Shown: positions 1,093 through 37,916, counted from the first letter of the stretch. The stretch: DNA of 42,630 bases from Pseudonocardiaceae bacterium (GCA_025924655.1 JAICHZ010000001.1:1-42630); one strand, 5' to 3'. Notes: generated by a model from the letters alone, not told the origin. A program made the numbers and translations.

Positions 1093-1129
1093 GGACTGGT
1101 CCCGCGCTACGTGCCAGCGGTGGTACCAT

Positions 1130-17879: not shown

Positions 17880-18230
17880 ATGACTGTTACCTGGTCCGGT
17901 ACCGGCGAGCGGGTCGCGGCACTGTCGTGCTGTGCCGGCTGCCGGGTGGATCCGGCGCTGCGCCGCCACCACGACCGGCTGCTGACCGTCGAGTCCGACG
18001 TCGACGAGCTGCTCGAGCTCATCGAGCTGGCAGTGACCTGGGGTGAGTTGAACTACTGCGGCGTCAGTGTCGTGCCGCCCGGGCAGTGGCTCGAGTTCGC
18101 CGCCTGCCACAAGTGGCGAGACCCGGACCGGGCGGCGCGAATCTTCAGTGTGGCCACCGACATCGCGCTGCGGACCGGCCGGCGCGAGACGGCCTACTCG
18201 CTGCCTGGTGAGGTCGCAACTGCCAGCTGA
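17880..18230 (+). CDS. hypothetical protein
   Basis: An internal ATG of ORF 17736..18230 is preceded by AAGGAGG about 8 nt upstream. The 116-aa product (MTVTWSGTGERVAALSCCAGCRVDP...) has no motif I recognise. Confidence 0.5.
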   Translation: MTVTWSGTGERVAALSCCAGCRVDPALRRHHDRLLTVESDVDELLELIELAVTWGELNYCGVSVVPPGQWLEFAACHKWRDPDRAARIFSVATDIALRTGRRETAYSLPGEVATAS

Positions 18231-19259: not shown

Positions 19260-19283
19260 GATAGTAGGTGCTCGCCCACTATC
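19260..19283. promoter_or_regulatory. inverted repeat in the divergent AIR-synthase-like / comA intergenic region
   Basis: GATAGTAGG-N6-CCCACTATC has arms complementary at 8/9 positions. It lies in the 68-bp gap between two divergently transcribed cluster genes. It is unusually AT-rich for this DNA. Confidence 0.35.
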
Positions 19284-19301
19284 TGATCTAACATCGAGGC
19301 C

Positions 19302-22299: not shown

Positions 22300-23279
22300 T
22301 CCCACCGCGGTTCCCACTCGCGGTGCTGCCTACGCCGCTGGTGCGGGCACACCGGCTGGAGGCGGTGCTGGGACGGGGCCGGGTGCAGCTCAAGCGCGAC
22401 GACCTGGCCGGGTTCGCAGTCGGCGGCAATAAGACCCGGCCGCTGGAGTACCTGCTGGGACAGGCCCTGGCCGACCGGTGCGACGTGCTGGTCACCGGCG
22501 GCGGCCCCGGCTCGAACTTCTGCCCGGCCGCCGCCGTGGCCGCCCGTGCCGCAGGCTTGGACTGCGAGCTGATCATCTGTGGCGACAACGACCGGGGCGA
22601 CGGGTACGGCTCAGCCAACCTGGCCATCGCGGCGGCTGCCGGCGCCTGCATCCGGCCAACCGGTGACCAGGCGCGCGAGGCCTTGGACGCCGCGATCGCC
22701 GAGCGCGCCGCCGACCTGACCGCGGCCGGCCGGCGGCCGTTCCCGGTGCCGCGCGGGGGGTCCACCCTGCTGGGCGCGGTGGGGTTCGCGGTCGCGGCGG
22801 CCGAGTTGGCGGGTCAGCTCGACCAGTCTGAGCTAGCGGGCGGCGCCGAACCCGCGCTGGTGGTACTGCCCGTCGGCTCCGGTAGCAGCTGCGCCGGGCT
22901 GCTGGCCGCCGGGCCGCCGTGGCCGGTGCTGGGGGTATCGGTCAGCCGGCCACTGCAGGAGATCACCAGCAAGGTGCACGCGCTGGCGCAGGCGTGCGCC
23001 CGGCTGCTGGGCTATCCGCCACCCCGCCCGAGGGGGCTGGAGATCGTTGACGCCCGCGGGCCCGGCTTCGGTATCGCGTCTCAGGCCGACCGGGCCGCCG
23101 CGTGCCTGGCGCTGCACACCGAAGGCCTACTGCTCGACGACACCTACGGCGCCAAGGCGTTCGCGGTGCTGACTCAGCGGGCCGGCGACGTCCGGGGACC
23201 CGTGGTGTTCTGGCACACCGGCGGTGTGGTGCCGGCCGTGGCCGCGCTGCGCCAGCGGATATCGGGAGGACGGATGTGA
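22296..23279 (+). CDS. PLP-dependent enzyme of the D-cysteine desulfhydrase / ACC deaminase family
   Basis: An ATGA overlap links it to the upstream stop. LPTPLVRAH, KRDDLAGFAVGGNKTRPLEYL (PLP lysine), PRGGSTLLGAVGF, LPVGSGSS, LLLDDTYGAKAF and FWHTGG align along E. coli DcyD as I remember it. Confidence 0.85.
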   Translation: MIPPRFPLAVLPTPLVRAHRLEAVLGRGRVQLKRDDLAGFAVGGNKTRPLEYLLGQALADRCDVLVTGGGPGSNFCPAAAVAARAAGLDCELIICGDNDRGDGYGSANLAIAAAAGACIRPTGDQAREALDAAIAERAADLTAAGRRPFPVPRGGSTLLGAVGFAVAAAELAGQLDQSELAGGAEPALVVLPVGSGSSCAGLLAAGPPWPVLGVSVSRPLQEITSKVHALAQACARLLGYPPPRPRGLEIVDARGPGFGIASQADRAAACLALHTEGLLLDDTYGAKAFAVLTQRAGDVRGPVVFWHTGGVVPAVAALRQRISGGRM

Positions 23280-24793
23280 CGCCAAGACGCGAGGAGGGGC
23301 CGCCGCAGACCGGGGCGGCGCGTGAGCTGGTGGAGTCCGGCTTCACACTGGAAAACGCGGACGCCTCATTCCTGCACCGCGGCCTGAACCTGGCCGACCT
23401 GGCGCACGTGTTGGACCTGGCCCGGCGCGGCATCGTGCCGGTGCCGGCTCAGCGCGAGCTGCTGGCGTTGCTGCTCGAGGTGTACGAGGTCCCCGCTGAC
23501 GAGTTCCCCTACGACCCCTCCTACGGCGAGCCGTACAACTCCCGCGAGCACTACTTCGTTTCCCGGATCGGCGACGTCGCAGGGTGGTTGCATGCCGGGC
23601 GGCCGCGGCGGGAGGCGGCTCGGATCGCGCTGCGGCTGCACCTGCGCCGCCAGCTCGTCGAGCTGGTCGCCGAGGCTGCCGCCTTCGCCCGGGTGGCCGT
23701 CGACCGGGCTGACGAGCACATCGAAACCGTGATGCCCGACCAGACTTACCTGCAGCAGGCCCAACCCTCGACGTTCGGGCACTACCTGCTGTCCTTTGTG
23801 TACTCGACGCTGCGGGATGCCCGCCGACTACTCGAGGAGCTCGACTGGGTGGACTGCAGCCCGGGCGGCGCTGGCTGCGTCAACGGCACCCGGCTGCTCT
23901 CTGACCGCAGCTTCATCGCCGACGCGCTGGGGTTCCGTGGAGTGATCGAGCACACCCGCGACGCGATGTGGCAGATCGACGGCCTGATCCACGTACTGGC
24001 CACCGCGGCCAGCCTGCTGTCCGGGTTCAGCAAATTGGCTGAAGACCTGGAGATCTGGTCGAGCAGCGAGTTCGACTTCGTTGATCTGGCAGACGCCTAC
24101 ACTCGGGCCAGCGTGCTCATGCCGCAGAAACGCAACCCGTACTCGCTGGCCATCGTCCGCGGTGCCTCCGGGATCGTCATCGGGCGGCTGGCCGGGTTCC
24201 TCGCGGTGGCCAAGAGCCCATCTGCTCGCAGCGACAACCTGATTTTCGCCTACGGTGAGGTGCCGCGGGCGCTCGACTTGTGCCTGCGGATCACCCGGTT
24301 GATCACTGGGGTGGTGCGCACGATGCGGGTCAACGCCGAGCGGATGGCCGAGCAGCTGCGCGCCGGCTACACCCAGTCCACCGACCTCGCCGAGCACCTG
24401 GTGCAGGTCTGCGCAGTGGACTACCGCACCGCTTACGTCGTCGTCGGACGCACTGTGCGGGCGGCCAGCCGGGCCGGGATCCCCGGCATGAAGATCACCG
24501 GCGAGATGCTCGACGACGCCGCCCGCGAGCACACCGGACGATCCTGGGGACTGGCCGGGATGGACCTGTCCGAGGTGCTCGACCCCTGGCAGATAGTGCT
24601 TTCCCGGCATGCCCAGGGCGGTGCCGCGCCAACGGCAGTGCACCGCATGACAGGGAACTTACGAAGGTCGCTGGACGAACTGGACGCCACGGTCAGCGAG
24701 CGGGCCGCGGCCCACGACCGCGCCGAGAGTTCGCTGCTGGCGGCGGCCAAGGCAGTGGTTGAGCAGGACGGTCAGCAGGAGGGTGCACCGTGA
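23276..24793 (+). CDS. fumarate-lyase-superfamily enzyme, argininosuccinate-lyase-like
   Basis: A GTGA overlap links it to the upstream stop. The signature loop is SVLMPQKRNPYSLA, and MPDQTYLQQAQPSTFGHYL is ArgH-like. Confidence 0.85.
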   Translation: MTPRREEGPPQTGAARELVESGFTLENADASFLHRGLNLADLAHVLDLARRGIVPVPAQRELLALLLEVYEVPADEFPYDPSYGEPYNSREHYFVSRIGDVAGWLHAGRPRREAARIALRLHLRRQLVELVAEAAAFARVAVDRADEHIETVMPDQTYLQQAQPSTFGHYLLSFVYSTLRDARRLLEELDWVDCSPGGAGCVNGTRLLSDRSFIADALGFRGVIEHTRDAMWQIDGLIHVLATAASLLSGFSKLAEDLEIWSSSEFDFVDLADAYTRASVLMPQKRNPYSLAIVRGASGIVIGRLAGFLAVAKSPSARSDNLIFAYGEVPRALDLCLRITRLITGVVRTMRVNAERMAEQLRAGYTQSTDLAEHLVQVCAVDYRTAYVVVGRTVRAASRAGIPGMKITGEMLDDAAREHTGRSWGLAGMDLSEVLDPWQIVLSRHAQGGAAPTAVHRMTGNLRRSLDELDATVSERAAAHDRAESSLLAAAKAVVEQDGQQEGAP

Positions 24794-26193
24794 GCGTGTT
24801 GCCGGAGCAGATCAGGGCGGTCAACATCGGGTTGCCGATGTTCGCCGATGCCCTTCGGGCGCAGGGCGTGGCGGTGGAGCATGTCGACTGGCGGATCCCT
24901 GCCGGTGGCGACCTGGCCGCGGTGGCCACGCTGAGCCGGCTCTACGGGGATCATGGGAGCGCTATCGACGGAGCCAACGCCGAGGTGGTGCGGCGGCTGG
25001 ACTCCGGCGTGCCGCAGCTTGTCGAGGTGTCCACGGTGGCGCAGGCCGTGCCCGCAATGGTGGGTCGCACCCTGCTGCACTGCGGCCCGGCGATCGACTT
25101 CGGGCAGGTGTGCGACCCGCTGCGCCGCTCGATGCGGGCCGCCGTGGTCGCCGAGGGCTGGGCGGCTGACGTCGAGGAGGCGCAGCGGTTGCTGGCCAGC
25201 GGCGATGTGGCGCTGGAGCCGGCCAACCACCACCAGGCGGTGGTACCGATGGCCAGCGCGATCGGCCCGACTGCACCGGTCTTCGTGGTGGCTGACCGCG
25301 AGGGCGGCACCCGGTCCTACGCGCCGGTCAACCAGGGCCCCGGCGAGGTGGCCTGGTTCGGCCGGGACACTGACGCGGCGGTCGAAAGGTTGAGGTTCCT
25401 GCGCGATGTCGCCGGTCCGGCGCTGACCCGGGTCCTGAGCTCGGCCGGCCCACTAGACATCCTCAGCTTGGCCGCACAGGGCGTCGCGATGGGCGACGAC
25501 CTGCACATGCGCACCCAAGCGGCGACCAACCTGCTTGTCCGAACGTGGCTGCCCCAACTCGCTGAGCTGCCGGACCAGCAGCGCGGCGGGATGGCCCGCT
25601 TCCTGTCCGGCAACCACCTCTTCTTCCTCACGCTGGCGATGGCCGCAGCCAAGGCGCTCACTCTCTGGGCCGAGGAGGTGAGCGGGTCAAGCGTCATCAC
25701 GACCATGTCCCGCAACGGGACCACGTTCGGGATCAAGCTTGCGGGCTCGCCGGAGTGGCACATCACCGCTGCCCCGCCCATCACTGACGCGTTGTACTAC
25801 TCCGGCTACGGGCCCGAGGACGCCGCCCCGGATATCGGCGACTCCGCCGTGCTGGAGCTGGTAGGACTGGGTGGACCGGCGGCCGCCGGCTCGCCAGCCG
25901 TGGCGGCGTTCCTCGGTGGCTCGATGGCCGACGGCAAGCGGGCCACCGAGGCGTTCCGGCAGATATGCGTCGGCACCAGCAGCCGCTTCACGTTGCCTCC
26001 GTTGGACTTCAGCGGCACGCCGGTCGGCGTGGACGTGCGGCGGGTGGTGGAGCTGGGGATCACCCCGCAGATCACCACCGGTATCCTGCACTGCTCCTTG
26101 GGCGTCGGACAGATTGGCGCCGGGGTGGCCACCGCGCCGCTGGAGTGTTTCACCGAGGCGCTGGCCGCCCTGGACGCTCGCCTGGTGCGGTGA
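24790..26193 (+). CDS. DUF1116 protein (YlbE/AllG-like, oxamate carbamoyltransferase subunit family)
   Basis: A GTGA overlap links it to the upstream stop. LLHCGPAIDF, LEPANHHQAVVPMASAIGPTAPVFVV and NQGPGEVAWFG resemble the YlbE/DUF1116 family. Confidence 0.8.
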   Translation: MSVLPEQIRAVNIGLPMFADALRAQGVAVEHVDWRIPAGGDLAAVATLSRLYGDHGSAIDGANAEVVRRLDSGVPQLVEVSTVAQAVPAMVGRTLLHCGPAIDFGQVCDPLRRSMRAAVVAEGWAADVEEAQRLLASGDVALEPANHHQAVVPMASAIGPTAPVFVVADREGGTRSYAPVNQGPGEVAWFGRDTDAAVERLRFLRDVAGPALTRVLSSAGPLDILSLAAQGVAMGDDLHMRTQAATNLLVRTWLPQLAELPDQQRGGMARFLSGNHLFFLTLAMAAAKALTLWAEEVSGSSVITTMSRNGTTFGIKLAGSPEWHITAAPPITDALYYSGYGPEDAAPDIGDSAVLELVGLGGPAAAGSPAVAAFLGGSMADGKRATEAFRQICVGTSSRFTLPPLDFSGTPVGVDVRRVVELGITPQITTGILHCSLGVGQIGAGVATAPLECFTEALAALDARLVR

Positions 26194-26927
26194 GGGCACT
26201 CGACGTCGGCCTCGGGGCCCGGAAGGTGCTCGGCGATCTCGCCGAGGGCCGGGTGGTCGCGGTCTACTCGCGGGCTGCCTACTTGCGGTTTCCGGCCGGA
26301 CTGTTAGCGGTGACGTCCGCGTGGGCGCCAGCCGGTCCGCTGAACCTGCGGTGCCCGGCGTTACCGGTACTGCGGCCGGGCGCTGCGGTGTGGACGGACG
26401 GTTCCCGGCTTTCGGGGCCAGGATGGGCGGTTGCACTAGAGGCACCGACCTGGGTGGGCGAGCTGCCCCCTCCCCCGACAGTTGCCCTGCCCTGCGCCGC
26501 CGCCGTGCCTGACCTGACTGGGCTGGCCGCACGTCTGGGCGGGCGCGGGCCGGGGCTTACCCCGGCCGGAGACGACGTGCTGGCCGGCGCGCTGCTTGCG
26601 GCACGGGCCCGCTGCGGGCCGGCGGCGGAACCCGAGTTATCCGCGGTTGCTGCCTCCGTACGCACCACCGACCCGGCCCTGGCGTTCCTGGCCTGGGCGG
26701 CCCGCGGTCAATGCATCGAACCAGCGCACACTGTGCTGCTGGCGATGACCCGCCGCGATGAGGCCCGGGCGCACGCTGCGGCGACCCGGCTGGTCACGAT
26801 CGGAGCCTCATCCGGTGCGGCGCTACTTGCCGGGTTGAGGCTCGGGCTGGGCGACCGGGATCAGCGGCCACGCAGGGAAAACCGGACCACCTGGGTCGGC
26901 CGACGCCCCGGGTTGGACCAGCGGTAG
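26190..26927 (+). CDS. DUF2877 protein (YlbF/AllH-like)
   Basis: A GTGA overlap links it to the DUF1116 stop. GRGPGLTPAGDDVLAGALLA matches the GxGxGLTPxGDD motif I associate with DUF2877, and IGASSGAALLAG lies near the C-terminus. The last ~25 aa overlap the convergent regulator and are probably read-through tail. Confidence 0.65.
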   Translation: MRALDVGLGARKVLGDLAEGRVVAVYSRAAYLRFPAGLLAVTSAWAPAGPLNLRCPALPVLRPGAAVWTDGSRLSGPGWAVALEAPTWVGELPPPPTVALPCAAAVPDLTGLAARLGGRGPGLTPAGDDVLAGALLAARARCGPAAEPELSAVAASVRTTDPALAFLAWAARGQCIEPAHTVLLAMTRRDEARAHAAATRLVTIGASSGAALLAGLRLGLGDRDQRPRRENRTTWVGRRPGLDQR

Positions 26928-27535
26928 CGGTGGTCGATCGGGTAGTGCAGAGCGTCGCCCCGGTGCAGTGTGTACTGCTCGCCGGCCACCTCAACGGCCA
27001 GCGTGCCGTCGAGCACGAGCAGCAGCTCCTCGCCCGGGTGCTGGGTGACCTCAGCGCCGGATTCGGCGCCCGGCGCCAGCGTTGCTATCTCCCCGGCGGT
27101 CCGGAAGCGCTCCCGGGGCCCGCCAATGCCGGCGAGCTCCACACCTGGAGCCGGTGCAGTCAGCGTCGGTCGCCCGGTGACTGGAGTGTGCGCGGCCACC
27201 TGCACGGGACCGGACGCAGCGTCGACGAAGTGTCCGATCGGACGGCCCAGCGCGGCAGCCAGCTTCAGCAGCGTGGTGATCGTCGGAACCATGTCGTTGC
27301 GCTCGACCTTGTGGATCGCGGCGGCTGACACGTCGGCGCGGCTCGCCAGCTGCTGCAGTGAAAGCCCAAGCTGCTGGCGCAGCTCATGAACCTTGGCGCC
27401 GATGGCGCCGACGATCGGCTCCCAATCCGGCACTGGGCCAACGCCCACTTGGCCGCCACGGTCACCCGCCAGCCCGTTGCGCTCCGGCCTGGCATCCGCG
27501 GAACCCGGGCCGCCTGTGGTCGCCGACCTGGCCAT
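26861..27535 (-). CDS. XRE-family HTH plus cupin-domain transcriptional regulator
   Basis: The HTH is LGLSLQQLASRADVSAAAIHKVERNDMVPTITTLLKLAAALG. The C-terminal cupin is HPGEELLLVLDGTLAVEVAGEQYTLHRGDALHY. The start is taken at Met9 (27535), which has AGGAGA 6 nt upstream. Met1 (27559) has no SD. Confidence 0.85.
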   Translation of the reverse strand: MARSATTGGPGSADARPERNGLAGDRGGQVGVGPVPDWEPIVGAIGAKVHELRQQLGLSLQQLASRADVSAAAIHKVERNDMVPTITTLLKLAAALGRPIGHFVDAASGPVQVAAHTPVTGRPTLTAPAPGVELAGIGGPRERFRTAGEIATLAPGAESGAEVTQHPGEELLLVLDGTLAVEVAGEQYTLHRGDALHYPIDHRYRWSNPGRRPTQVVRFSLRGR

Positions 27536-27546
27536 GAGTGATCTCC

Positions 27547-27574
27547 TTGACAGTGACATTGCGTTCAGTATGAT
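27547..27574 (+). promoter_or_regulatory. candidate sigma-70-like promoter for the flavoprotein/DsrE/nitrile-hydratase operon
   Basis: TTGACA (27547-27552), a 16-nt spacer, then TATGAT (27569-27574), about 75 nt upstream of GTG 27650. An imperfect palindrome overlaps it: GTGA.TGCGTT-N10-AACGCA.TCAC (27553-27587). Confidence 0.35.
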
Positions 27575-27649
27575 AAACGCACATCACTTATGGTGTATAC
27601 GTGGCTGCGTGGACGAGCCCCATCGTAAACGCCGGAAGAAGGGTTATCC

Positions 27650-28993
27650 GTGCCGCGCAAGACGGTGATCATTGGTGGGGGGGCCGCTGGTCTGGGCGCC
27701 GCCGGTGGTGTGAAGGCGGCCGATCCTGGAGCCGACGTCGTCGTCTACACCGAATACGAGGATGTTGCTTACAGCCCCTGCGGCATCCCCTATGTGCACG
27801 GCAAGGAGATCCCCGACTTCGAGCGGCTGTTCCTGGCCGGCAAGCAGACCTACATCGACGCAGGCATCGATGTGCACTACAGCACCGCGGTCACCGCGCT
27901 GGACACCGCGCACAAGATGGTCACGGTTGTTGGCGAGGGTCGGGTCTCCTACGACACCGTGGTCGTGGCCACCGGCTTCAACTATGCCGATCCCGGGGTG
28001 CCGGGCGGCGACCTCGGGGGCCTGTACTACGTCAAGAATATTCGCCGGGCCATGGAGTGGGACAAGGTTCTCGACTCGGTGAAAAAGGCCGTCGTAGTCG
28101 ACGCCTCGCCGCTCGGGGTGGAGATGGTCACCGCGCTCGCCCAGCGCGGCATCGAGACTCACCTGGTTGACCCATACCCGTGGCCGCTGGCTGAGATGGT
28201 CGACCCGGACATCATGGCGCCGGTCGAGGAGTCGTGGGGCGAGCTAGGCGTCGTCGCGCACTACAACAGCACGTTGGAGGCTTTCCTCGGCGACCACAGC
28301 GGCCACGTCCGTGCGGTGCGGACCTCCGAAGGTGAGCTGGAAGCCGAGATCGTCGTGGTGTGCACACACAAGGAGCCGAACAACACCCTCGCCGCGAAGG
28401 CCGGCCTGAAGCTCGGCTCGACCGGCGGCGTGATCGTCGACGCACGGATGTCCACCTCGGCGCCCCACGTCTTCGCCGCCGGCGACTGCGTCGAGATCCC
28501 GCACGGGCTGACCCGGGTTCCACTGCAGGGGCTGACCGGCAGCCACGCTTACGCTCAGGGCAAGGTCGCTGGCGCCAACGCCGGCGGCGGTAACCGGGCT
28601 TACCGCGCGGTGTACGTGCCGTGGGGTACCCCGGCTGGCAAGTGGGTGATCGGGGGTGCCTCCTTCGGCGAGACCACTGCCACCGCGTTGGGCATCCCGT
28701 ACGTGGTGGGGACCGCTCAGGGCATTTCGAGGGCCCGGTACTACCCGGGCGTCAAGCCGGTCAAGGTCAAGCTGCTCGCCGAGCCGGGCAGCCTGCGGCT
28801 GATCGGCGCCCAGATGGTCGGCCAAGAGGGAATCAAAGAGCGAGCCGACTTCCTCGCGATGGCGGTTAAGTTCGGCTTCACCCTGGGCGACCTTGCGACG
28901 ATGGAGAACGTCTACTCGCCGGCGATCGGGGCGCTCAACGAGCCCATCGTCCTGGCCGCACAGAAGGCCCTCGACTCACTCAAGAAGCGCTGA
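27650..28993 (+). CDS. pyridine-nucleotide-disulfide oxidoreductase of the CoA-disulfide reductase / NADH oxidase type
   Basis: It has an N-terminal GGGAAG Rossmann motif and a single redox Cys in YSPCGIPY. A second dinucleotide fold (KKAVVVDASPLGVEM) and FAAGDC follow. The C-terminal dimerisation region is LIGAQMVGQEGIKERADFLAMAV. Confidence 0.85.
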   Translation: MPRKTVIIGGGAAGLGAAGGVKAADPGADVVVYTEYEDVAYSPCGIPYVHGKEIPDFERLFLAGKQTYIDAGIDVHYSTAVTALDTAHKMVTVVGEGRVSYDTVVVATGFNYADPGVPGGDLGGLYYVKNIRRAMEWDKVLDSVKKAVVVDASPLGVEMVTALAQRGIETHLVDPYPWPLAEMVDPDIMAPVEESWGELGVVAHYNSTLEAFLGDHSGHVRAVRTSEGELEAEIVVVCTHKEPNNTLAAKAGLKLGSTGGVIVDARMSTSAPHVFAAGDCVEIPHGLTRVPLQGLTGSHAYAQGKVAGANAGGGNRAYRAVYVPWGTPAGKWVIGGASFGETTATALGIPYVVGTAQGISRARYYPGVKPVKVKLLAEPGSLRLIGAQMVGQEGIKERADFLAMAVKFGFTLGDLATMENVYSPAIGALNEPIVLAAQKALDSLKKR

Positions 28994-28994
28994 C

Positions 28995-29252
28995 ATGTCG
29001 TTTTTCCAGTGGCTACGCCGCAACTCCGAGCATTACCTGATGATCGCGGCGCACGAGCAACTGGCGCAGCAGTACTCCGGGCGGGCCCCGCGCCCGCCGC
29101 GCGGCCTCAAGGAGTTGTTCTGGCTGCGTCTGTTCGTCCCCATTTACCGGGCACTGCCCTGGCTGGTGCGGCAGCGGATCATGCAGTCCATGCCGGGCAG
29201 TCACCGCCAACAATGGGCGCCGCCTCCCCGGACGCAGAACCCGGCGGTGTGA
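28995..29252 (+). CDS. small hypothetical protein (85 aa)
   Basis: Its ATG lies 1 nt after the flavoprotein stop. [27 protein letters not shown]...[18 protein letters not shown] has one amphipathic or hydrophobic stretch. I recognise no family. Confidence 0.5.
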
Positions 29253-29286
29253 TCGCGAGATCCGCGCAAAGAAAACAACCCCGATA

Positions 29287-29790
29287 ATGAAAGGAAGTCT
29301 CCCGGTGGCACAGATCGTGGGTGAAAGGGTTAGCAAGGGCGACGCGATCGTCGACTACGAGGAAAAAGTATTCGAGGACATTCAGGCCGAGCCGGGCGAG
29401 AAGGCGTACATCCTCATGCACACAGTGCCATTCGAGGGCTCGGTAGGTCTGGTCAATATGCTGACGGCGACCCGGATCAACCGCAAGGGGTTCGACACGC
29501 ATCTGGTGCTTTACGGCCCGGGATCACTGATGGCGGCGGCTACCCGCGGCTATCCGAAGGTCGGCGATGAGCCGTTCCCCGGTGCGCTGAGCTATAACAA
29601 GCAGCTGCAGACGTTCATGAACGAGGGCGGGCACGTCTACGCCTGCCGGTTCTCGGCCGCCGCGCTCTACGGCATGCGCGAGATCGACATGATGGAGGGC
29701 GTGAAGCCGATCAACCCGCTCGATGTCCTGGATTCGGTGCTGACGGCCCGCCGGCAGAATGCGCTGATCATGCAGACTTGGACCGTCTGA
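29287..29790 (+). CDS. DsrE/DsrF-fold protein, plausibly MSMEG_0572/Sll0783 (NitB) family
   Basis: The protein has 167 aa. [40 protein letters not shown] and [16 protein letters not shown] give a DsrE-like pattern with a conserved Cys. An alternative start is GTG 29305, with AAGGAAG upstream. The family assignment is from memory only. Confidence 0.65.
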
Positions 29791-29793
29791 ACC

Positions 29794-29839
29794 CTCGTGA
29801 GTGCGTAACAGTGTCAGGACACTGTTACGCACTCACGAG
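29794..29839. repeat. perfect 46-bp palindrome (22-bp arms, 2-nt centre) between the DsrE-like gene and the nitrile hydratase genes
   Basis: CTCGTGAGTGCGTAACAGTGTC-AG-GACACTGTTACGCACTCACGAG. I verified that the arms are exact reverse complements. It starts 4 nt after the upstream stop and ends 18 nt before the nthB GTG, with no T-tract after it. Confidence 0.9.
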
Positions 29840-29857
29840 CACCGGAGGTGCATCATC

Positions 29858-30523
29858 GTGAACCGGATCGCGGACCTGGGCGGCACCGAAGGCTGGGGCC
29901 GGGTCAAGACGCCGACCGCGGACGAACCTGTCTTCGCGCAGGAGTGGGAAGGTCGGGCGTTCGCGTTGGCCTTGCTGTCAATGGGTCGGGTGTCCGGCCG
30001 CAACCTTGACGCGTTCCGGCACGCGCTGGAACGCCTGGGGCGCCCCGAATACTTCGACACCTACTACGGGCGGTGGCTGCATGCGGCCGAGCTGATGCTC
30101 GTCGAGAGCGCAATTCTCGCCCCCGGCGCGGTGGAGGCTCGGGCCCGCAAGCTGCGCGGTGAGGACGTCGATGAGCCACCGGTGCCCGAGCCGAACAAGC
30201 CTGATTACGCGCCGACCGCCGCGGGCTCGCTGCGCACCGTGGAGGACGCACCGCGTTTCGCCGTCGGTGAGCGGGTGCGCGCCAAAGACCTGGAGCCGAA
30301 AGGCCACACCCGGTTACCGCACTACCTGCGCGGGCATTGCGGCACCATAGAGATGATCCAGCCCGCGGCGCTGCTGCCGGACACCCACGCCCACTTCCTC
30401 GGCGAAAACGCGCAACATGTCTACACCGTGCGTTTCGACTCCCGCGAGCTGTGGGGAGCCGATGCCCAGCCCTTCGCGCTGAGCAGCGAGCTGTACGAGA
30501 GCTACCTGGAGCCCGTGTCATGA
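29858..30523 (+). CDS. nthB: nitrile hydratase beta subunit
   Basis: The start is taken at GTG 29858, with GGAGG 9 nt upstream. [14 protein letters not shown] matches the MDGIHDLGG-type N-terminus, along with [27 protein letters not shown] and VYTVRF. Confidence 0.9.
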
Positions 30524-31116
30524 GTGAGACGACCCCTGCCGACCGGCTGCCGATCGAGCTGCGTACCGAGGCGCTGGAGCAGCTGCTCACCGAGCGCGGG
30601 CTGGTCGACCCGTCGGTGATGGACAAGTTCATCCAGACTTACGAGACATCGGTCGGGCCGATGAACGGCGCCAAGGTGATCGCCAAGGCGTGGACCGACC
30701 CGGACTACCGCGAGCGACTACTCGCTGACGGCACTGCTGCGATTGCCGAGCTCGGCTTTAAGGGGCCGCAGGGCGAGCACATCGTGGTCGTAGAAAACAC
30801 CCCGCAGCGGCACAACGTGATCGTCTGCACGTTGTGCTCGTGCTACCCGTGGCCGGTGCTGGGGCTGCCGCCGAGCTGGTACAAGGACCCGGCTTACCGC
30901 GCCCGGGTGGTGCGCGAGCCGCGGGTGGTGCTGGCCGAGATGGGTCTCGAGCTGCCCGCCGACACCGAGATCGTGGTCCGGGACTCCAGCTCCGAGGTGC
31001 GCTGGCTGGTGCTGCCGGAGCAGCCAGCAGGCACCGAGGACCTGTCTGAGCAGGAGCTGGCCGGACTGGTCACCCGCGACGCCATGGTGGGCGTGGCGAA
31101 GGTCAAGGCGCCATGA
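30520..31116 (+). CDS. nthA: nitrile hydratase alpha subunit, cobalt type
   Basis: An ATGA overlap links it to the beta stop. The metal site [21 protein letters not shown] has Thr and Tyr in the Co-type positions. Confidence 0.95.
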
Positions 31117-31457
31117 CGGCGGCCGCGCCGCTGGAGATCGACGGTTCCGCCGCACCGCCGCGCAGCAATGGCGAGCTGGTCTTCGCCGAGCCGTGGGAGA
31201 GCCGGGCGTTCGGCCTGGCCGTCACCCTCTACGACGCCGGCGCCTTCGAATGGGCGCAGTTCCAGGCCGCGCTGGTCGCACAGATTGCTGCGTGGGAACG
31301 TGCGCACCCGTCGGGGGAGTGCTTCAGCTACTACCGCTGCTGGCTCGGCGCGCTGGAGTCGGTGCTCGTGGACGCCGGGATGGTCGGCCCGAACGACGTT
31401 GTCGAGCGCGCCACCGCCCTCGCTAGCCGTCCCCCCGACCACGACCACGACCGCTGA
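31113..31457 (+). CDS. nitrile hydratase accessory (activator / metallochaperone) protein
   Basis: An ATGA overlap links it to the alpha stop. The 114-aa protein has a beta-subunit-like N-terminus ([16 protein letters not shown]), as in NhlE/P14K-type activators. Confidence 0.8.
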
Positions 31458-31856
31458 AGCAGGCGGACCTTGGCCCAGCTGACTTTCTTCCCCCGGTCCG
31501 CTACAGCTACGTTCGGTTATGACAAGCTGCGGCACGTTCGCTCCGCCAAGGGACAGGATGAAGCCAACTTCAATGGCACCAAGTTCAGCCTGCCCAATGT
31601 GCATCCACGAAGTCGCCGTGCCCGTGGAGCTAGCCGACGGCACACCACCGCCGTGACCCGGGCCGCGAATGCTACCCGGCCGCCGACTACCGCACCGAGA
31701 CGCAGCCCGCGAGATGACCTCGATCATCGACTGACAGGGGTTGATCTCTGAGGGTCGGGCTGCGGTCCGATCGCGATGTCCTCAAACGTGCCTCACCCAA
31801 CCGCCACGTCACCTACCAACCCGGCTGCCGCCTCTGCGGTCCGAGGCGAAGCCTCG

Positions 31857-33080
31857 TTAGAAAACGGTCGTTCGCTGCCGAGCGCGCCTCCAAGCCCGCA
31901 CCTCTGCGTAGACCTTCAGGTGCCGCCGGGCGCTCGCTTCCCAGGTGAACCGCGGCAGGAGGGTTCGGCCGCCGGCCCGCAGCCGCTCCCGCAATCCCGG
32001 GTCGGTAACCAGTTCGCGCATCGCGCCAGCCAGGCTCGCGGCGTCGGCAACCCTGGGCAGAAGCGCGTCTACGTGGTCGGTGAGGTACTCCCGGAAGACC
32101 GGCAGGTCGGTGGCGATCACCGGCAGGTCTTGGCTCATCGCTTCCAGCACCGCGAGTCCCCAGCCCTCCTTGACCGACGGAAAGGCCAGCGCGTCGGCGC
32201 TCTGGTACCACCCGGCGAGCTCCGCGTCATCGACGGTGCCGAGCAGCACCACGTCGCGCCCGAGCGCGAGCCCGAGCCCGGGCAGCGAGTCCAGCGCAGC
32301 GTCCCGGTAGGCGGCGTAGTCCTGAAAGGAATGCCCGCCAACAATCGCCAGCACCGCGGGCGTGGTCAGCTCCCGCCGCAGCCGTCCCAGCGCCTCGAAG
32401 AGGTACACGCTGCCCTTACGCGGCTCCACGCCGCCGACAGCGAGGAACAGAAACGTGCGCTCGTCGGTGATCCCGATCCGGGCCCGCAGCTCGGCGCGCG
32501 AAGCCGGCGGTATTCGCGAGAAGCGCTCAAGGTCCACCCCGTTGGGCACGACCACCGGCTCGACGCCGTAGTCCGCGCGCAGGATCCGGCGCCACTGCTC
32601 GCTGACCACGAGCACCTGGTCGGGCTCCAGGATCGCCTCGCGCTGGCAGGTGATCAGCACCGGGGTGGTGAAGTCATCGACGTGATGCACCGTGCGCACC
32701 ACCGATACGGGTGCCCCCGCGTCACGCACCCGGGCCGCCGCCCGGGCCGCGATGCAGTCCTGCGCGTGCAGGATGTCGGCTCGAACGGTGGAACCGTCGA
32801 TCCGGCGCTCGACGGTGGAACCGTCGTCGACCAGCCTGGCGAGCCCGTCGGTCAGCACGTCGATCGATGCGAATACCCGCTCCTCGAGCGAGCCGCTCTT
32901 GGCTGGCGCTGGAAGCACAGTGTGCGGTACCGCTGTCGGTCGGAATAACCCCACTGCGGGATCTCCCAACGCGATCAGGTGTACGGGGTGGCCCTGCCGG
33001 TGCAGCTCCTCGGCCAAGCCCATCGTGTGCACCAGGCCACCGCGCGGCTTGGTCGAGTGGGTAACGAGCGCGACTGTCAT
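31857..33080 (-). CDS. GT4-family glycosyltransferase, plausibly MSMEG_0565 family
   Basis: The N-terminus is MTVALVTHSTKPRGGLVHTMGLAEEL. The C-terminal GT-B motif is PSVKEGWGLAVLEAMSQDLPVIATD. An ATGA overlap links it to the upstream fdrA-like stop. Confidence 0.85.
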   Translation of the reverse strand: MTVALVTHSTKPRGGLVHTMGLAEELHRQGHPVHLIALGDPAVGLFRPTAVPHTVLPAPAKSGSLEERVFASIDVLTDGLARLVDDGSTVERRIDGSTVRADILHAQDCIAARAAARVRDAGAPVSVVRTVHHVDDFTTPVLITCQREAILEPDQVLVVSEQWRRILRADYGVEPVVVPNGVDLERFSRIPPASRAELRARIGITDERTFLFLAVGGVEPRKGSVYLFEALGRLRRELTTPAVLAIVGGHSFQDYAAYRDAALDSLPGLGLALGRDVVLLGTVDDAELAGWYQSADALAFPSVKEGWGLAVLEAMSQDLPVIATDLPVFREYLTDHVDALLPRVADAASLAGAMRELVTDPGLRERLRAGGRTLLPRFTWEASARRHLKVYAEVRAWRRARQRTTVF

Positions 33081-34645
33081 AGCTGGGTCTGGGAAAGCTC
33101 GGGGTCACGGCTGACGATCGCAGCGGCGGCCAGCGAGGCTCGGGCTGCGGTCTCGGTGACCACACAGCCGGCGTCGATGAAGGCCTGGCGTTGCGCGTCG
33201 AAGCCCTGCGGGTCGGCTTCGGTGCCGAGCACGTAGACGACGATCACGGGACCGCCGTTCGCGGTGATCTCGGCGCATACCGGCGCCAGCTCACCAGCCG
33301 GGTCGTCGTGCGCGCCGTAGCCGAGCACGACATCCAGGATGACTACGGCGACGTCCGGGTCGGTGCCCTGTTCGCGAAGCAGCGCGATGCGCGCCTCGGG
33401 ATCGATCATCGGGTGCGGCCGTCCCTTGGTGTACTCCTCCTCGCCGAGGTCGAGGCAGGTGTGACTGCCTGCCGGCGCCGGCAGCCCGAAGGCGGAATCC
33501 AGCGGAGTGTTGGAGTACACCGGCCCGAGGTGCCCAGGGAGATACCGGGAGAGGATGACCAGCGACTCGTAGCACAGCGTGCCGCCGGAGAACAGCCCGC
33601 GGATCAGCCGCCGCTGCTCGGGTAGCTCCGCGATCGCGGCTGCCACCCGCTCGCGCAGCCCGACTGCCGGGTTGGGCGGTTGCCGGCCCAGTGCGGCCAG
33701 CGTCGCGATCACCCCGGACTCCAAGGTGTCGGCGACCGTGACCCCGTCCGGCACCTCCATCCCGCACGGCAGGCCGAGCAGCGCGGCGATGACCAGTTTG
33801 TCGCCGCCGGCGGCCGGCAGCACTGCGCGGACCACCTCGGGCGAGGGCGGCTTGGACACCAGCAGCACCACCTCGGTGCGCTCGTCATGGGCCAGCGCCC
33901 GCAGCGCCGAGCGCGCCATCAGGCCACCCACGTCCGACGAGAGGTCTCTGCCACCGAGGCCGATGACGTGCGAGACGCCGACGCCCCAGCGGTCCAGCAG
34001 ACTCATCGCCTCCTGCGCGCCGGTGCCGGCGGCAGCGACCACGGCCACTGGGCCCGGCGTGGTGACGTTGGCGAAACCCAGGCAGGTGCCGCCGAGCATC
34101 GCGGTGCCCGCTCCGGGGCCCATGACCAGCCGGCCCAGCCGCTCGGCGCGTTGTTTGAGCGCCACTTCGGCGGCCAGCGAGACATTGTCGCTGAACAACA
34201 GCACGTCCAGGCCGGCCGACAGGGCCTTGTGCGCCTCCAGCGCTGCGTAGTCGCCGGGAACCGAGACCACTGCGATGTTGCTGTCCGGCGCCCGGTCCAG
34301 CGCGTCGCGCAGGGTTCTCGGCGACTGCTCGGTCCCAGAGCTGTCGCCGGACTTGCCGCCAGCGCCGCGGCTGTCGAAGATGCTGGCCCGGCCGGCCTCC
34401 TCAGCCTCCCCGGCGACCTCTTCAGCGGAAGCGCGCACCGCAATGACCAGATCGTTGGAGCTGCCGCCGGACCAGTCCTGCGGGTTGAAACCCTGCTCGG
34501 TGAGAGTGTCGAGGTTCGCCGGCGTGGCCATCGCGGCGGTGGCCCACTCGACGCCGTCAACGGCGCGCATCGCCCGGGTGCCGGCGAGCTGCACCACCGA
34601 GTCGACGTAGGTATCGCGGAACAGTCGGACCCTGGTGATGCTCAT
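33077..34645 (-). CDS. fdrA: FdrA-family protein (succinyl-CoA-synthetase-alpha-like; AllF-type)
   Basis: MSITRVRLFRDTYVDSVVQLAGTRAM and AMATPANLDTL resemble the FdrA N-terminus. CoA-ligase-like Gly-rich segments follow (VMGPGAGTAMLGG, VVAAAGTGAQE). An ATGA overlap links it to the carbamate kinase stop. Confidence 0.85.
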   Translation of the reverse strand: MSITRVRLFRDTYVDSVVQLAGTRAMRAVDGVEWATAAMATPANLDTLTEQGFNPQDWSGGSSNDLVIAVRASAEEVAGEAEEAGRASIFDSRGAGGKSGDSSGTEQSPRTLRDALDRAPDSNIAVVSVPGDYAALEAHKALSAGLDVLLFSDNVSLAAEVALKQRAERLGRLVMGPGAGTAMLGGTCLGFANVTTPGPVAVVAAAGTGAQEAMSLLDRWGVGVSHVIGLGGRDLSSDVGGLMARSALRALAHDERTEVVLLVSKPPSPEVVRAVLPAAGGDKLVIAALLGLPCGMEVPDGVTVADTLESGVIATLAALGRQPPNPAVGLRERVAAAIAELPEQRRLIRGLFSGGTLCYESLVILSRYLPGHLGPVYSNTPLDSAFGLPAPAGSHTCLDLGEEEYTKGRPHPMIDPEARIALLREQGTDPDVAVVILDVVLGYGAHDDPAGELAPVCAEITANGGPVIVVYVLGTEADPQGFDAQRQAFIDAGCVVTETAARASLAAAAIVSRDPELSQTQL

Positions 34646-35616
34646 GACACGGCTCCAAGCGAAGTGGAGGCGGCGACGATGCGGGTGCCCACCGCGGCAC
34701 CGCCGGGGGCCGGGTCGAGCGAGCGGGCGGCACGTTCGGAGTTGGTGATCACAGCGGTGCGACCGCCCGCCCGGACGAACTCGATCGCGGCTCGAACCTT
34801 GGGTCCCATGCTGCCGTCCGGGAACTGGTCGTCCTCAAGGTGGAGCTGTGCCTCGTCGGCGGTCATGGCGGTAATCGGGCGGGCGTCCGGGGTGCCGTAG
34901 TCAAGCATCACCTGCTCCACGTCCGTGACCATGACCAGCGCGTCGACGCCCAGCGCAGTGGCCAGCCGCTGGGCGGCAAGATCTTTGTCCACGACGGCGT
35001 CCACGCCGCGGTAGGCGTGCCCGTCTTCGACCACCGGCACCCCTCCGCCACCAGCCGCCACTACCAGCGCACCACGCTCGACCAGTGCGGTGATCACCTC
35101 GAGCTCGAGGAATCGCAGCGGGCGCGGCGAGGCGACCATCCGGCGGTAGCCCCGTTCGGCGTCCGGGGCCACTGTCCAGTTCCGCTCAGCGGCCAGCCGC
35201 CGCGCCTCCTCCTCACCAAAAAACGGCCCGATCGGTTTCGTGGGGTGAACGAAGGCCGGGTCGTCGGCCGCAACCACGACATGGGTCACCACGCTCACCA
35301 CGGCGGGCAGCCGTCCGCCGCAGGCGTCGTGCAGCGCCAGGGTGAGCAGGCTGCCCAGTTGGCCCTCAGTCATCGCGCCCAGGCAGAACAGTGGTTGCAC
35401 CGGCACGGTCTCGCGTGCCGCGTCCTGCTGGATGGACAGGCAGCCGACCTGCGGCCCGTTGCCGTGCACCACGATGACCCTCCACCCGGCGTCACGCAGC
35501 GCGCATACGGTGTGCGCCATCGCTCGGGCATTGGCCGCCTGCTCGGCGTGCGTGCCGGCTTGGTCGACCCGGGTGATCGCGTTACCGCCCAGGGCGACGA
35601 CGGCGGTTCGGGGCAT
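34642..35616 (-). CDS. arcC: carbamate kinase
   Basis: VVALGGNAI, VVHGNGPQVG, VVAAGGGGVPV and a VVDKDLAAQ-type motif are present. The start is taken at Met10 (35616), with GGGAG 10 nt upstream. An alternative start is 35643. Confidence 0.9.
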   Translation of the reverse strand: MPRTAVVALGGNAITRVDQAGTHAEQAANARAMAHTVCALRDAGWRVIVVHGNGPQVGCLSIQQDAARETVPVQPLFCLGAMTEGQLGSLLTLALHDACGGRLPAVVSVVTHVVVAADDPAFVHPTKPIGPFFGEEEARRLAAERNWTVAPDAERGYRRMVASPRPLRFLELEVITALVERGALVVAAGGGGVPVVEDGHAYRGVDAVVDKDLAAQRLATALGVDALVMVTDVEQVMLDYGTPDARPITAMTADEAQLHLEDDQFPDGSMGPKVRAAIEFVRAGGRTAVITNSERAARSLDPAPGGAAVGTRIVAASTSLGAVS

Positions 35617-35660
35617 CTGGTTCGCGCTCCCGTCGATATGCATTATGAGAAGCGACGTAC

Positions 35661-35668
35661 ACTATAGT
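35661..35668. promoter_or_regulatory. AT-rich 8-bp palindrome ACTATAGT in the divergent carbamate-kinase / radical-SAM-operon intergenic region
   Basis: It is a perfect palindrome that also contains TATAGT, a good -10 hexamer, readable on both strands. It sits in an otherwise GC-rich ~95-bp divergent gap. Confidence 0.3.
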
Positions 35669-35710: not shown

Positions 35711-36340
35711 TTGACCGGACTGGACGCGGAGCGGGACGACGCCCTGCGCCGGGCACGGGCCCGGTGGCGGGCCGCCGAGGACCGACTGTTCCCGGTGGTG
35801 CTCGTCGACCCGGACACCTACCGGCGGGCGTTGTATGTCGTGGGCCTGCTTCTCGAGCAGCTGCGGGCGAATACCACTTCTCTCGACCAGCTGCTCGGCT
35901 TGGACGTCGACCCTGCGCCGTTGCTCTCGACACTGCCGGCCGGCTCCGTGTGTGACGACGGGGACCGGCTGACGCTGGAGGCGGCGTTTGCGGTACGGGA
36001 CAGGGAGCTCGCAGCGGCCGCTAAGCGCGGCCAACGAGCTGCGGCCATCGCGTTGGCGCACGCCGCCGGCGCGACCTGGGTGGACCTCGAGGGATCTTGG
36101 GAAGCTGTCCTGAGCACCGGGGGGCGGCACACCGAGATGCATTTGCCCACCGCCCGGGCGTTGGTCGCCACGATCGATCCCTACTCCGGAGATGGCCCGC
36201 ACCGGCTGGAGCTGGTCGTGCTGGACGGCGACACCGGCACACCAGTCGAGACGACCGACCGCGACCGGGCCTTTGCTGACCGGGCGGAGTGGCTGGCGCA
36301 GCGGCAGCGGTGGCGCGCGGATATCGAGGAAGGTAGGTAG
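35711..36340 (+). CDS. hypothetical protein leading the radical SAM / GNAT operon
   Basis: This 209-aa ORF has a TTG start and ends 2 nt before the radical SAM ATG. I recognise no motif. Confidence 0.6.
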   Translation: MTGLDAERDDALRRARARWRAAEDRLFPVVLVDPDTYRRALYVVGLLLEQLRANTTSLDQLLGLDVDPAPLLSTLPAGSVCDDGDRLTLEAAFAVRDRELAAAAKRGQRAAAIALAHAAGATWVDLEGSWEAVLSTGGRHTEMHLPTARALVATIDPYSGDGPHRLELVVLDGDTGTPVETTDRDRAFADRAEWLAQRQRWRADIEEGR

Positions 36341-36342
36341 AT

Positions 36343-37446
36343 ATGACCGGTCCAGCCGCGGTCGCTTCGTTAATCATGGATTTGCAGAGCCTCGGGCTGC
36401 GGGTGGAGGCGCCCATCGAGATTCGCCGCGGCGGAGCGGGTCCCACGGACTCTGGAATGCTGTGGATCGAGGGCGTGCCGGTCACCGTCCCCAGCCAGCC
36501 CGAGTCCCCCTACGTGCTCAAGGCTGAGGACGACGGACACGGCATCTACCGTGATGGGCGCAAGATGGCTTCGGCCGCCGCCAGCCGCCGGCCCCGGTTC
36601 TACGACCTGACCACAGCCGATGGCATTCCCTACTGGAAGATCGCGCTGCTGCACCTGGACTCGCTGGCCAGCACTGTTGTGCAGACGTGCAACTACTGGG
36701 GTAACTCCGACCAGTGCGGGTTCTGCGGTATCGGGCTGTCGCTGGGCGCTGGGCGCACGATTGTGAAGAAAACCCCGGCCCAGCTCGCCGAGGTGGCAGT
36801 CGCCGCTCGGAACCTCGATGGGGCGGTGGACGTCACCCTGACCACCGGCAGCTCAGCCGCCCCGGACCGTGGTGCGCGCTACGTCGCGCAGTGCGGGCAC
36901 GCGGTCAAGCAGGCCTCTGGGCTGCCCGTCCAGGTGCAGTTCGAGCCGCCACGCGACCTTGCGGTGCTTCAGGAAGTCGCCGACCTGGGCATCGACGCGG
37001 TGGGCATCCACGTCGAGTCCTTCGATCCCGAAGTGCTGGCCACGGTGGCACCAGGCAAGGCGCGCACCGGCATCGAGACCTACTTCCGCACCTGGGAGCG
37101 GGCGGTGGCACTGTTCGGTGCGGGCCGGGTGTCCACCTACGTCATCCTCGGCATGGGCGAGGATCCCGAGGTCACCGTCGAGGGGTGCCGGCGCGCCATC
37201 GACATCGGCGTTTACCCGTTCGTTGTCCCACTGCGGCCGGTGGCGGGCAGTCTGATGGCCGACGTGCCAGCGCCGGTCCGCACCTACACCGAGCCGATCT
37301 ACCGCAAGGTCGCCGCACACCTGGCGCTGCGTGGGATGAGCGCCGACGACGCCGGCGCCGGTTGTGCCCGCTGCCAGGCCTGCTCGGCGATGAACACCGT
37401 GCAGCCGCTGCTGCAGATCGGCCGCCGGCCAGAGGAGACCGCATGA
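36343..37446 (+). CDS. radical SAM protein, plausibly MSMEG_0568 family
   Basis: The Cys triad CNYWGNSDQCGFCG (36688-36726) is followed by a TIM-barrel-like pattern (VDVTLTTG, IDAVGIHVESFD, YVILGMGE). It is translationally coupled to the downstream GNAT, as in Nit1C-type clusters. Confidence 0.8.
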   Translation: MTGPAAVASLIMDLQSLGLRVEAPIEIRRGGAGPTDSGMLWIEGVPVTVPSQPESPYVLKAEDDGHGIYRDGRKMASAAASRRPRFYDLTTADGIPYWKIALLHLDSLASTVVQTCNYWGNSDQCGFCGIGLSLGAGRTIVKKTPAQLAEVAVAARNLDGAVDVTLTTGSSAAPDRGARYVAQCGHAVKQASGLPVQVQFEPPRDLAVLQEVADLGIDAVGIHVESFDPEVLATVAPGKARTGIETYFRTWERAVALFGAGRVSTYVILGMGEDPEVTVEGCRRAIDIGVYPFVVPLRPVAGSLMADVPAPVRTYTEPIYRKVAAHLALRGMSADDAGAGCARCQACSAMNTVQPLLQIGRRPEETA

Positions 37447-37916
37447 CCCCACTGCGGCCGTCGGCCGACCTGCTGTCCTGCCGGCTGGTTGCCGGGCCGG
37501 ACGAGCTGGCGCGCCACCACTGGATCCGGCACGAGACATTCGTCCGCGAGCAGCAGGTGTTCGCCGGGTCCGATGTGGACGCCCACGATGCTCGCGAGGA
37601 CGTGATGCATGTGGTCGGCTACTGCGGGGGGGTGCCGGCTGGCACCGTACGGCTCTACCCGCTCGACGAATCCGGGCGCACCTGGCAGGGTGACCGGCTC
37701 GCCGTGCTGCCGGAGTTCCGGCACGTCGGGCTGGGCGCGCCGCTGGTGCGCTTCGCGGTGGCCACCGCCGGCCGGCTGGGCGGGGTCTCGATGCACGCGC
37801 ACGTGCAAGTCGCCAATGAGCGGTTCTTCACCCGGCTCGGCTGGATCCGGCAAGGCGACGTCGAACTCTACGTCGGTCGGCCGCACCTACTCATGACCAT
37901 CGCCCTGGCCTCTTGA
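37443..37916 (+). CDS. GNAT N-acetyltransferase, plausibly MSMEG_0567/Sll0786 family
   Basis: An ATGA overlap links it to the radical SAM stop. The GNAT core is GDRLAVLPEFRHVGLGAPLVRFAV...ANERFFTRLGW. Confidence 0.85.
   Translation: MTPLRPSADLLSCRLVAGPDELARHHWIRHETFVREQQVFAGSDVDAHDAREDVMHVVGYCGGVPAGTVRLYPLDESGRTWQGDRLAVLPEFRHVGLGAPLVRFAVATAGRLGGVSMHAHVQVANERFFTRLGWIRQGDVELYVGRPHLLMTIALAS

Follow-up and report, generated by a model that had tools for sequence, protein, structure and literature searches.

Oxamic transcarbamylase was linked to its genes only in 2024 (Kim and Kim, PMC11326118). In E. coli the enzyme is made of AllF, AllG and AllH, which co-purify in active form, are all required (AllH included), act on an N-carbamoyl amide, and are encoded together with the catabolic carbamate kinase AllK as allFGHK (PMC11326118). 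The same gene set adjoins biuret genes in nitrifiers (PMC12625717). The Nit1C cluster, described by Podar et al. 2005 (PMC1199592), is represented by sll0783-0787 of Synechocystis, by the gpr genes MSMEG_0565-0572 of M. smegmatis, which are induced by nitrogen starvation (PMC6039565), and by nitBCDEFGH of Pseudomonas, needed for cyanide assimilation (PMC7815647). A bacterial coenzyme M pathway, XcbABCDE, is known from Xanthobacter autotrophicus Py2 (PMC9457059). Relatives of all three systems meet in the DNA analysed here, the entire 42.6 kb contig (42,630 nt, JAICHZ010000001.1; hereafter the window) of a Pseudonocardiaceae metagenome-assembled genome (MAG; GCA_025924655.1). In this window and its relatives, the genes of the AllF/AllG/AllH/AllK set are divided between two transcription units, and the division is an old feature of a separate clade that lies within a nitrilase-less variant of the Nit1C/gpr cluster. 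To our knowledge, only one substrate pair is known for oxamic transcarbamylase, and the function of Nit1C beyond its nitrilase has gone unexplained for twenty years.

Gene Content and Layout of the Locus

The genes in question sit in a single cluster occupying about 17.4–41.1 kb of the window (coordinates of all features are given in Table 1). The original prediction had assigned four of them, from sequence alone, to the set comprising FdrA, DUF1116, DUF2877 and carbamate kinase (CK), and this assignment is borne out by profile matches and by identities to the E. coli K-12 proteins: 38% to AllF/FdrA over the full length, GRPHPMIDP loop included, 37% to AllG/YlbE, 35% to AllH/YlbF over the C-terminal 106 residues only, and 41% to AllK/YbcF. 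The top NCBIfam match of the FdrA-like protein is 'acyl-CoA synthetase FdrA' (NF004760), at 407 bits slightly below the cut-off of 433. The AllG-like protein is related to PDB 3clq and the FdrA-like protein to PDB 3dmy. By sequence comparison, the four genes encode true homologues of AllF, AllG, AllH and AllK.

As had been predicted, the AllG- and AllH-like genes close a plus-strand operon of xcb-like (coenzyme-M-type) genes. The GTG start of the AllG-like gene overlaps the stop of the XcbC-like gene (24790–24793, GTGA), and the same overlap, read directly in the sequence, joins AllG to AllH (26190–26193). On the minus strand, CK, FdrA and a GT4 glycosyltransferase are likewise joined by ATGA overlaps (33077–33080 and 34642–34645). 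The genes had been described as fused to unrelated partners, but their link is translational coupling, the stop codon of one gene overlapping the start codon of the next. The two halves do lie in opposing operons; their separation, put earlier at about 7 kb, is 6.1 kb from the AllH stop to the FdrA stop. Between AllH and the GT4 gene are an HTH-cupin regulator, a flavoprotein gene, two small genes and a cobalt nitrile hydratase operon.

AllG, AllH and FdrA are each present in a single copy in the MAG (3.74 Mb, 451 contigs, 90.7% complete). Contigs assembled independently in two other metagenome studies exclude mis-assembly of the split: with 0–4 differences, they run from AllG into nitrile hydratase beta and from nitrile hydratase alpha into CK. 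Parts of the FdrA, ComA, XcbC-like, DsrE-like, nitrile hydratase and radical SAM genes recur without differences in contigs of a soil RNA library. Both operons are represented, with no piece of AllG among the RNA-library contigs listed. These contigs give a weak hint of expression, as strand and level cannot be read from them and DNA carry-over is possible.

Conservation of the Split Arrangement

Relatives were sampled by an AllG search with one genome per species, yielding 58 loci (Pseudonocardia, Actinomycetospora, Acidimicrobiia and one Nocardioides MAG), to which identity look-ups added Streptomyces and further Pseudonocardia loci. Cluster proteins were placed on these loci by tblastn. The loci cover at least two classes of Actinomycetota but are mutually related, and the counts below are not independent. 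Of the 49 loci that have both AllG and FdrA, none shows the two as neighbours (0/49); they are on the same strand in two of the 49, and their spacing ranges from 1.2 to 12.5 kb (median 6.5 kb). FdrA is immediately preceded by CK in 46 of 50 loci and immediately followed by the GT4 gene in 45 of 50, and an XcbC-like gene is directly upstream of AllG in 41 of 73. Synteny in related genomes had been proposed as a check on the split, and a recent rearrangement without conservation as the outcome that would speak against it; the split is kept in all 49 loci that hold both genes. One unpublished genome has this gene order as far as its contig extends, and no conclusion here depends on it.

The arrangement taken as canonical in the original prediction is contiguous, and this order is seen in E. 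coli and in eight actinobacterial relatives with approximately 40%-identical AllG, where FdrA lies directly upstream of AllG (adjacent type). One of these eight carries a natural FdrA-AllG fusion, an open frame of 1094 amino acids. In a quick maximum-likelihood tree of AllG, where the E. coli sequence has a long branch, the eight adjacent-type and 68 cluster-type sequences are parted by a branch with 100% support in the Shimodaira–Hasegawa-like approximate likelihood ratio test (SH-aLRT). allG, with or without allH, and allK-allF are always in different transcription units within this old, separate clade.

Compared with E. coli allFGHK, the locus retains all four families at 35–41% identity (AllF, AllG and AllK aligning over their full length), the AllF loop, and a carbamate kinase co-encoded with AllF. 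It differs in gene order, which is never contiguous: a sulfonate cassette precedes allG-allH, and allK-allF have a glycosyltransferase gene as their coupled partner. In addition, it has neither an allantoin-pathway context nor an AllD-family gene, many clade members are without AllH, and AllG forms a clade of its own.

A further difference from E. coli concerns the boundary between AllF and AllG. The first 50 residues of the window AllG (24790–24940) match the last 46 of E. coli FdrA with 37% identity, and contain residues that are invariant across all 25 aligned cluster-type AllG sequences. In E. coli this segment is on AllF, while in the actinobacterial relatives it is on AllG or within the FdrA-AllG fusion, so that the AllF/AllG gene boundary moves between lineages. 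Its position on AllG was considered as a hallmark of the split and rejected, since adjacent-type actinobacterial loci also have it on AllG or in the fusion; as judged by these alignments, it marks the AllF-AllG boundary and not the split.

The same cluster can decay. In one congener (G020, contig C44, ~49.5–51.6 kb), only a truncated AllG (residues 46–454, 79% identity) remains beside a frameshifted AIR-synthase-like gene, and the xcb genes, AllH and the rest of the cluster are gone.

A Nitrilase-less Variant of the Nit1C/gpr Cluster

Four families that define Nit1C/gpr (TIGR04047, TIGR04043, TIGR04044 and TIGR04045) score above their curated cut-offs in the window, a frame in which the original prediction had not placed the genes. 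Its glycosyltransferase, radical SAM, DsrE-like and GNAT genes correspond to those of Nit1C, and an AIR-synthase-like gene, below the cut-off of its best-matching family, and a small hypothetical protein occupy matching positions. Unlike Nit1C, the locus has no nitrilase, and a CoA-disulfide-reductase-like flavoprotein takes the place of the FMO-like one. Added to the frame are AllF/G/H with carbamate kinase, the xcb-like cassette, OsmC and the HTH-cupin regulator, together with an Amidohydro_2 gene or, in the window, the cobalt nitrile hydratase. A tblastn search with a Nit1C nitrilase query (subfamily 1, sll0784 type) found no CN_hydrolase homologue in the window or in any AllG-bearing locus.

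The relationship was also examined in a survey not chosen by AllG. Among 400 Actinomycetota genomes, TIGR04044 had 15 matches, and 20 kb around each was examined. Four of the 15 loci lack AllG, FdrA and CK and combine a nitrilase of the CN_hydrolase family with genes for an FMO-like flavoprotein and for radical SAM, GNAT and AIR-synthase-like proteins; ten carry AllG and/or FdrA plus CK, the CoA-disulfide-reductase-like flavoprotein and an HTH-cupin gene, and no nitrilase; the remaining locus is cut off at a contig end. The FMO-like flavoprotein (MSMEG_0569 type) was confined to loci with a nitrilase. In this sample, nitrilase and the AllG/FdrA/CK module exclude each other. The ten module-bearing loci, which belong to other classes, lack nitrile hydratase; between their 209-residue and radical SAM genes lies an Amidohydro_2 gene.

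The module is a fixed component of a conserved cluster of about 20 genes in Actinomycetota, a nitrilase-less variant of Nit1C/gpr that usually includes the xcb-like sulfonate cassette and the CoA-disulfide-reductase-like flavoprotein. No published description of this supercluster was found; the literature gives the E. coli enzyme, the classical Nit1C/gpr clusters and the biuret-linked allFGHK. The cluster is widespread in Actinomycetota and, in the literature found, not yet described.

The xcb-like cassette directly upstream of allG has all five enzyme types of the Xanthobacter pathway in one operon, with XcbA above its family cut-off and XcbD close to it. It differs in gene order, in the XcbC-, XcbE- and ComA-like proteins falling below their family cut-offs, and in having no coenzyme M-using alkene or epoxide enzymes nearby; its putative product would be coenzyme M or a related sulfonate.

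Two variations were seen at the edges of related clusters. In Pseudonocardia ailaonensis (L026, 11474–18256) there are no xcb genes, and AllG is followed by an Oxidored_FMN gene, a luciferase-like monooxygenase, a 2OG-Fe(II) oxygenase and an NMT1/ABC transporter set, which we take, from the Pfam families only, to be of the sulfonate-uptake type. This variant seems to take up a sulfonate instead of synthesising it. In Actinomycetospora, Streptomyces and several Pseudonocardia, the cluster is bordered on its OsmC side by LarE-, LarB- and LarC-like genes, of the kind that make the nickel-pincer cofactor, and no LarA-type enzyme is in sight; in the MAG that contains the window, LarC is on another contig (C140:7621–8784).

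Table 1. Features of the window, in order of position, with the profile matches that define them.
Feature	Position	Strand	Evidence and remarks
OsmC-like protein, conserved cluster edge	17365–17763	-	PF02566; same position in relatives
orf128, small conserved gene between OsmC and the AIR-synthase-like gene	17880–18230	+	no family match; same place in most related loci
AIR-synthase-like protein, sll0787 type	18244–19233	-	AIRS + AIRS_C; top NCBIfam match TIGR04049, 251.9 bits, below cut-off 321.3
Related inverted half-sites (GATAGTAG ... CACTATC)	19260–19284	.	AIRS/ComA divergent promoter region driving the xcb-allG-allH operon
xcb-like sulfonate (coenzyme-M-type) cassette	19302–24793	+	Pfam + NCBIfam; directly upstream of allG
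ComA/XcbB-like	19302–20084	+	Pfam threshold met; NCBIfam 220 vs cut-off 280
XcbA	20081–20959	+	338.6 vs cut-off 150
XcbD-like	20956–22299	+	575 vs cut-off 600
XcbE-like	22296–23279	+	223 vs cut-off 450
XcbC-like	23276–24793	+	418 vs cut-off 575
AllG-like (DUF1116) subunit	24790–26193	+	PF06545, 232.9 bits
AllH-like (DUF2877) subunit, end of plus-strand operon	26190–26927	+	PF11392, 74.1 bits
HTH-cupin (PuuR-like) regulator	26861–27559	-	HTH_3 + Cupin_2; best NCBIfam match PuuR, below cut-off
CoA-disulfide-reductase-like flavoprotein	27650–28993	+	Pyr_redox_2 + Pyr_redox_dim; best NCBIfam match CoA-disulfide reductase, below cut-off
92-residue protein	29009–29287	+	no Pfam/NCBIfam match; conserved in relatives; position of small Nit1C hypothetical protein
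MSMEG_0572/Sll0783-family DsrE-like protein, Nit1C signature	29287–29790	+	TIGR04044, 227.3 bits vs cut-off 109.85
Cobalt-type nitrile hydratase beta	29801–30523	+	Pfam; TIGR03888 cited for the operon
Cobalt-type nitrile hydratase alpha	30520–31116	+	Pfam; VCTLCSC motif
Nitrile hydratase accessory protein	31113–31457	+	Pfam
MSMEG_0565-family GT4 glycosyltransferase, translationally coupled to FdrA	31857–33080	-	TIGR04047, 354.9 bits vs cut-off 259.85
AllF/FdrA-like subunit, succinyl-CoA-synthetase-alpha-like	33077–34645	-	Ligase_CoA + CoA_binding domains
Carbamate kinase (CK, AllK-like), start of minus-strand operon	34642–35643	-	NF009007, 275.5 bits vs cut-off 266
Palindromic octamer ACTATAGT	35661–35668	.	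CK/orf209 (209-residue gene) divergent promoter region
Conserved 209-residue protein (orf209), divergent from CK	35711–36340	+	no family match; adjoins radical SAM gene or CK in relatives
MSMEG_0568-family radical SAM protein	36343–37446	+	TIGR04043, 388.7 bits vs cut-off 303.7
MSMEG_0567/Sll0786-family GNAT	37443–37916	+	TIGR04045, 95.3 bits vs cut-off 68.45; ATGA overlap with radical SAM gene
SARP/AfsR-type regulator (BTAD, AAA, TPR)	37891–41094	-	Pfam; adjoins cluster in several Pseudonocardia loci

Promoter Regions of the Two Operons

Related loci totalling 1.44 Mb contain 34 copies of the palindromic octamer ACTATAGT, all of them intergenic; 28 of the 34 copies are just upstream of CK and three are upstream of a stand-alone AllG. 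The window contains just two copies of the heptamer ATAGTAG (19261 and 35664), one in each of the divergent promoter regions of the two operons, and the half-site element at the first of these is kept in the orthologous intergenic regions. The separated operons are shown by these patterns to share a conserved element, a candidate promoter or operator.

A separate observation was made in the OsmC/orf128 intergenic region (17796–17822), where there are tandem near-matches to a GlnR-box-like pattern (TTCAC-N6-GCAAC-N6-GCAAC).

Nitrile Hydratase as a Lineage-specific Neighbour

In the window, the nitrile hydratase operon adjoins the DsrE-like gene. Across the AllG tree, loci with a nitrile hydratase are nested within a clade whose basal members have Amidohydro_2 instead. 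The alpha subunit was found nowhere in four of five module-bearing genomes (97–99% complete), and the Streptomyces module loci showed no nitrile hydratase within 10 kb. Because the Amidohydro_2 loci are basal and four of the five genomes are without the hydratase, the module is the constant feature of the nitrilase-less type, to which the hydratase was added later. The hydratase would be a later, lineage-specific addition, mainly of Pseudonocardiaceae and some Acidimicrobiia, and as an obligatory partner of the module it was rejected as a general rule.

Loci of the Pseudonocardia benzenivorans group have kept AllG, the hydratase accessory gene and GT4-FdrA-CK, but the alpha and beta subunits were not found there by tblastn; the gap from AllG to the accessory gene is only about 0.4 kb, and the P. 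benzenivorans genome has eight hydratase alpha matches elsewhere.

Other Features of the Window

Near the left end (475–1149, minus strand), a single 224-residue frame combines a Phd/YefM antitoxin domain with a PIN toxin domain; it represents either a toxin-antitoxin fusion or two separate genes called as a single one. Two tandem Methyltransf_19 (PF04672) paralogues (13381–15138, plus strand) adjoin a P450 gene (11903–13300) and a short N-terminal P450 fragment (8020–8625).

Possible Function of the Divided Module

The old, conserved layout within a nitrilase-less cluster suggests that a carbamoyl compound different from that of the E. coli enzyme is probably handled. On balance, we favour a reading in which the conserved clade represents AllF and AllG, with or without AllH, acting together with carbamate kinase on a compound specific to the cluster. 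AllF and AllG, with AllH where it is present, would still act jointly though separately encoded, and by analogy with the E. coli oxamic transcarbamylase would catalyse carbamoyl-X + phosphate ⇌ carbamoyl phosphate + X-H, after which carbamate kinase would convert carbamoyl phosphate to ATP, ammonia and CO2. X is unlikely to be oxamate. Given AllFGH/AllK chemistry in a nitrilase-less version of a nitrogen-starvation cluster, the module would supply the C-N cleavage, or nitrogen-release, step. Indirect support for a partnership of FdrA and AllG comes from the natural fusion, the movable boundary segment of 50 residues, the shared cis element, and co-purification of the E. coli subunits (PMC11326118).

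Several points weigh against this reading. The function is drawn by analogy with one characterised enzyme at 35–41% identity. AllH (PF11392) was found nowhere in five genomes carrying cluster-type AllG, and is absent directly after AllG in many loci, including relatives with 84–89% AllG identity; as AllH is required in E. coli, the enzyme may differ in make-up or chemistry. The exclusivity of nitrilase and module comes from 14 informative genomes that are not mutually independent. Regulation by nitrogen starvation finds no echo in GlnR boxes (GTNAC-N6-GNAAC), with 24 matches in the window against 22 expected and hence no enrichment. The octamer ACTATAGT contains a good -10 hexamer and so could be the core of a promoter instead of an operator; in both cases, the two operon halves bear the same conserved candidate signal. 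The SARP regulators beside Pseudonocardia clusters are as compatible with biosynthesis as with catabolism.

That biosynthetic direction is a serious rival, although we regard it as unlikely. CK would make carbamoyl phosphate, and AllF/G(/H) would use it to carbamoylate an intermediate of a glycosylated, sulfonate-bearing metabolite or cofactor. The gathering of a SARP-type regulator, GT4, radical SAM, GNAT and a dedicated sulfonate cassette in one cluster would fit such a pathway, as would the LarB, LarC and LarE cofactor genes adjoining it in many relatives and the AIR-synthase-like protein, which is distantly related (by a weak match) to HypE, an enzyme that dehydrates a carbamoyl group. However, the characterised bacterial carbamate kinases of this type are catabolic (E. 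coli AllK, PMC11326118), and the related nitrilase-type clusters are systems for nitrogen starvation and cyanide assimilation (PMC6039565, PMC7815647). The original prediction had tied the module to nitrile hydratase, which would make an amide for the AllFGH-like enzyme to carbamoylate to an acyl-urea; alternatively, that enzyme would split an acyl-urea into the amide and carbamoyl phosphate, with a gain of ATP. The hydratase operon does lie between the two halves in the window and in most Pseudonocardiaceae loci, no amidase was seen in the cluster, and the known enzyme acts on an N-carbamoyl amide (PMC11326118). Set against this are the late, nested position of the hydratase in the AllG tree, its absence from most of the module genomes and from the Streptomyces loci described above, and those Pseudonocardia loci that retain the module after losing hydratase subunits. 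As a general link the proposal does not hold, and we consider it improbable overall; in Pseudonocardiaceae a lineage-specific link is possible.

An ordinary oxalurate/oxamate branch of purine catabolism that lies by chance inside another cluster would account for the presence of homologues of all four E. coli components, but is very improbable. The window has no allantoin-pathway genes, and the canonical oxalurate pathway was rejected because the AllD family (PF02615) was not found in the genome of the window (90.7% complete) or in three of the four other carrier genomes. Moreover, AllG forms a clade apart from the adjacent type, the linkage to Nit1C-type genes is constant across classes, and AllH is often missing.

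Within the favoured reading, carbamoyl transfer in a nitrilase-less cluster, a specific chemistry can be sketched, though we give it little probability. The AllF/AllG enzyme descends from succinyl-CoA-synthetase-type thioester chemistry. AllF/AllG might phosphorolyse an S-carbamoyl derivative of the neighbouring coenzyme-M-like thiol to carbamoyl phosphate and free thiol. With CK, this would recover nitrogen and ATP from carbamoyl groups derived from cyanate, thiocyanate or cyanide and replace the Nit1C nitrilase, and in the lineage of the window the hydratase would feed in organic thiocyanates or nitriles.

Implications

New in this analysis are the adjacency counts, the recognition of nitrile hydratase and AllH as inconstant partners, the shared ACTATAGT, the movable boundary segment, and the missing AllD family. 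One distinct clade of the oxamic transcarbamylase set, together with the carbamate kinase, is a firm part of a widespread cluster unrelated to purine breakdown. The natural swap of a nitrilase for a carbamoyl-phosphate module offers a chemical clue, namely that the pathway intermediate may bear a cyano or a carbamoyl group on a leaving group. Cultured strains carry the cluster and could be used for testing, candidates being Actinomycetospora sp. CA-101289, Pseudonocardia oceani and Streptomyces strains. The cluster also suggests a role for coenzyme-M-type sulfonates beyond methane and alkene metabolism.

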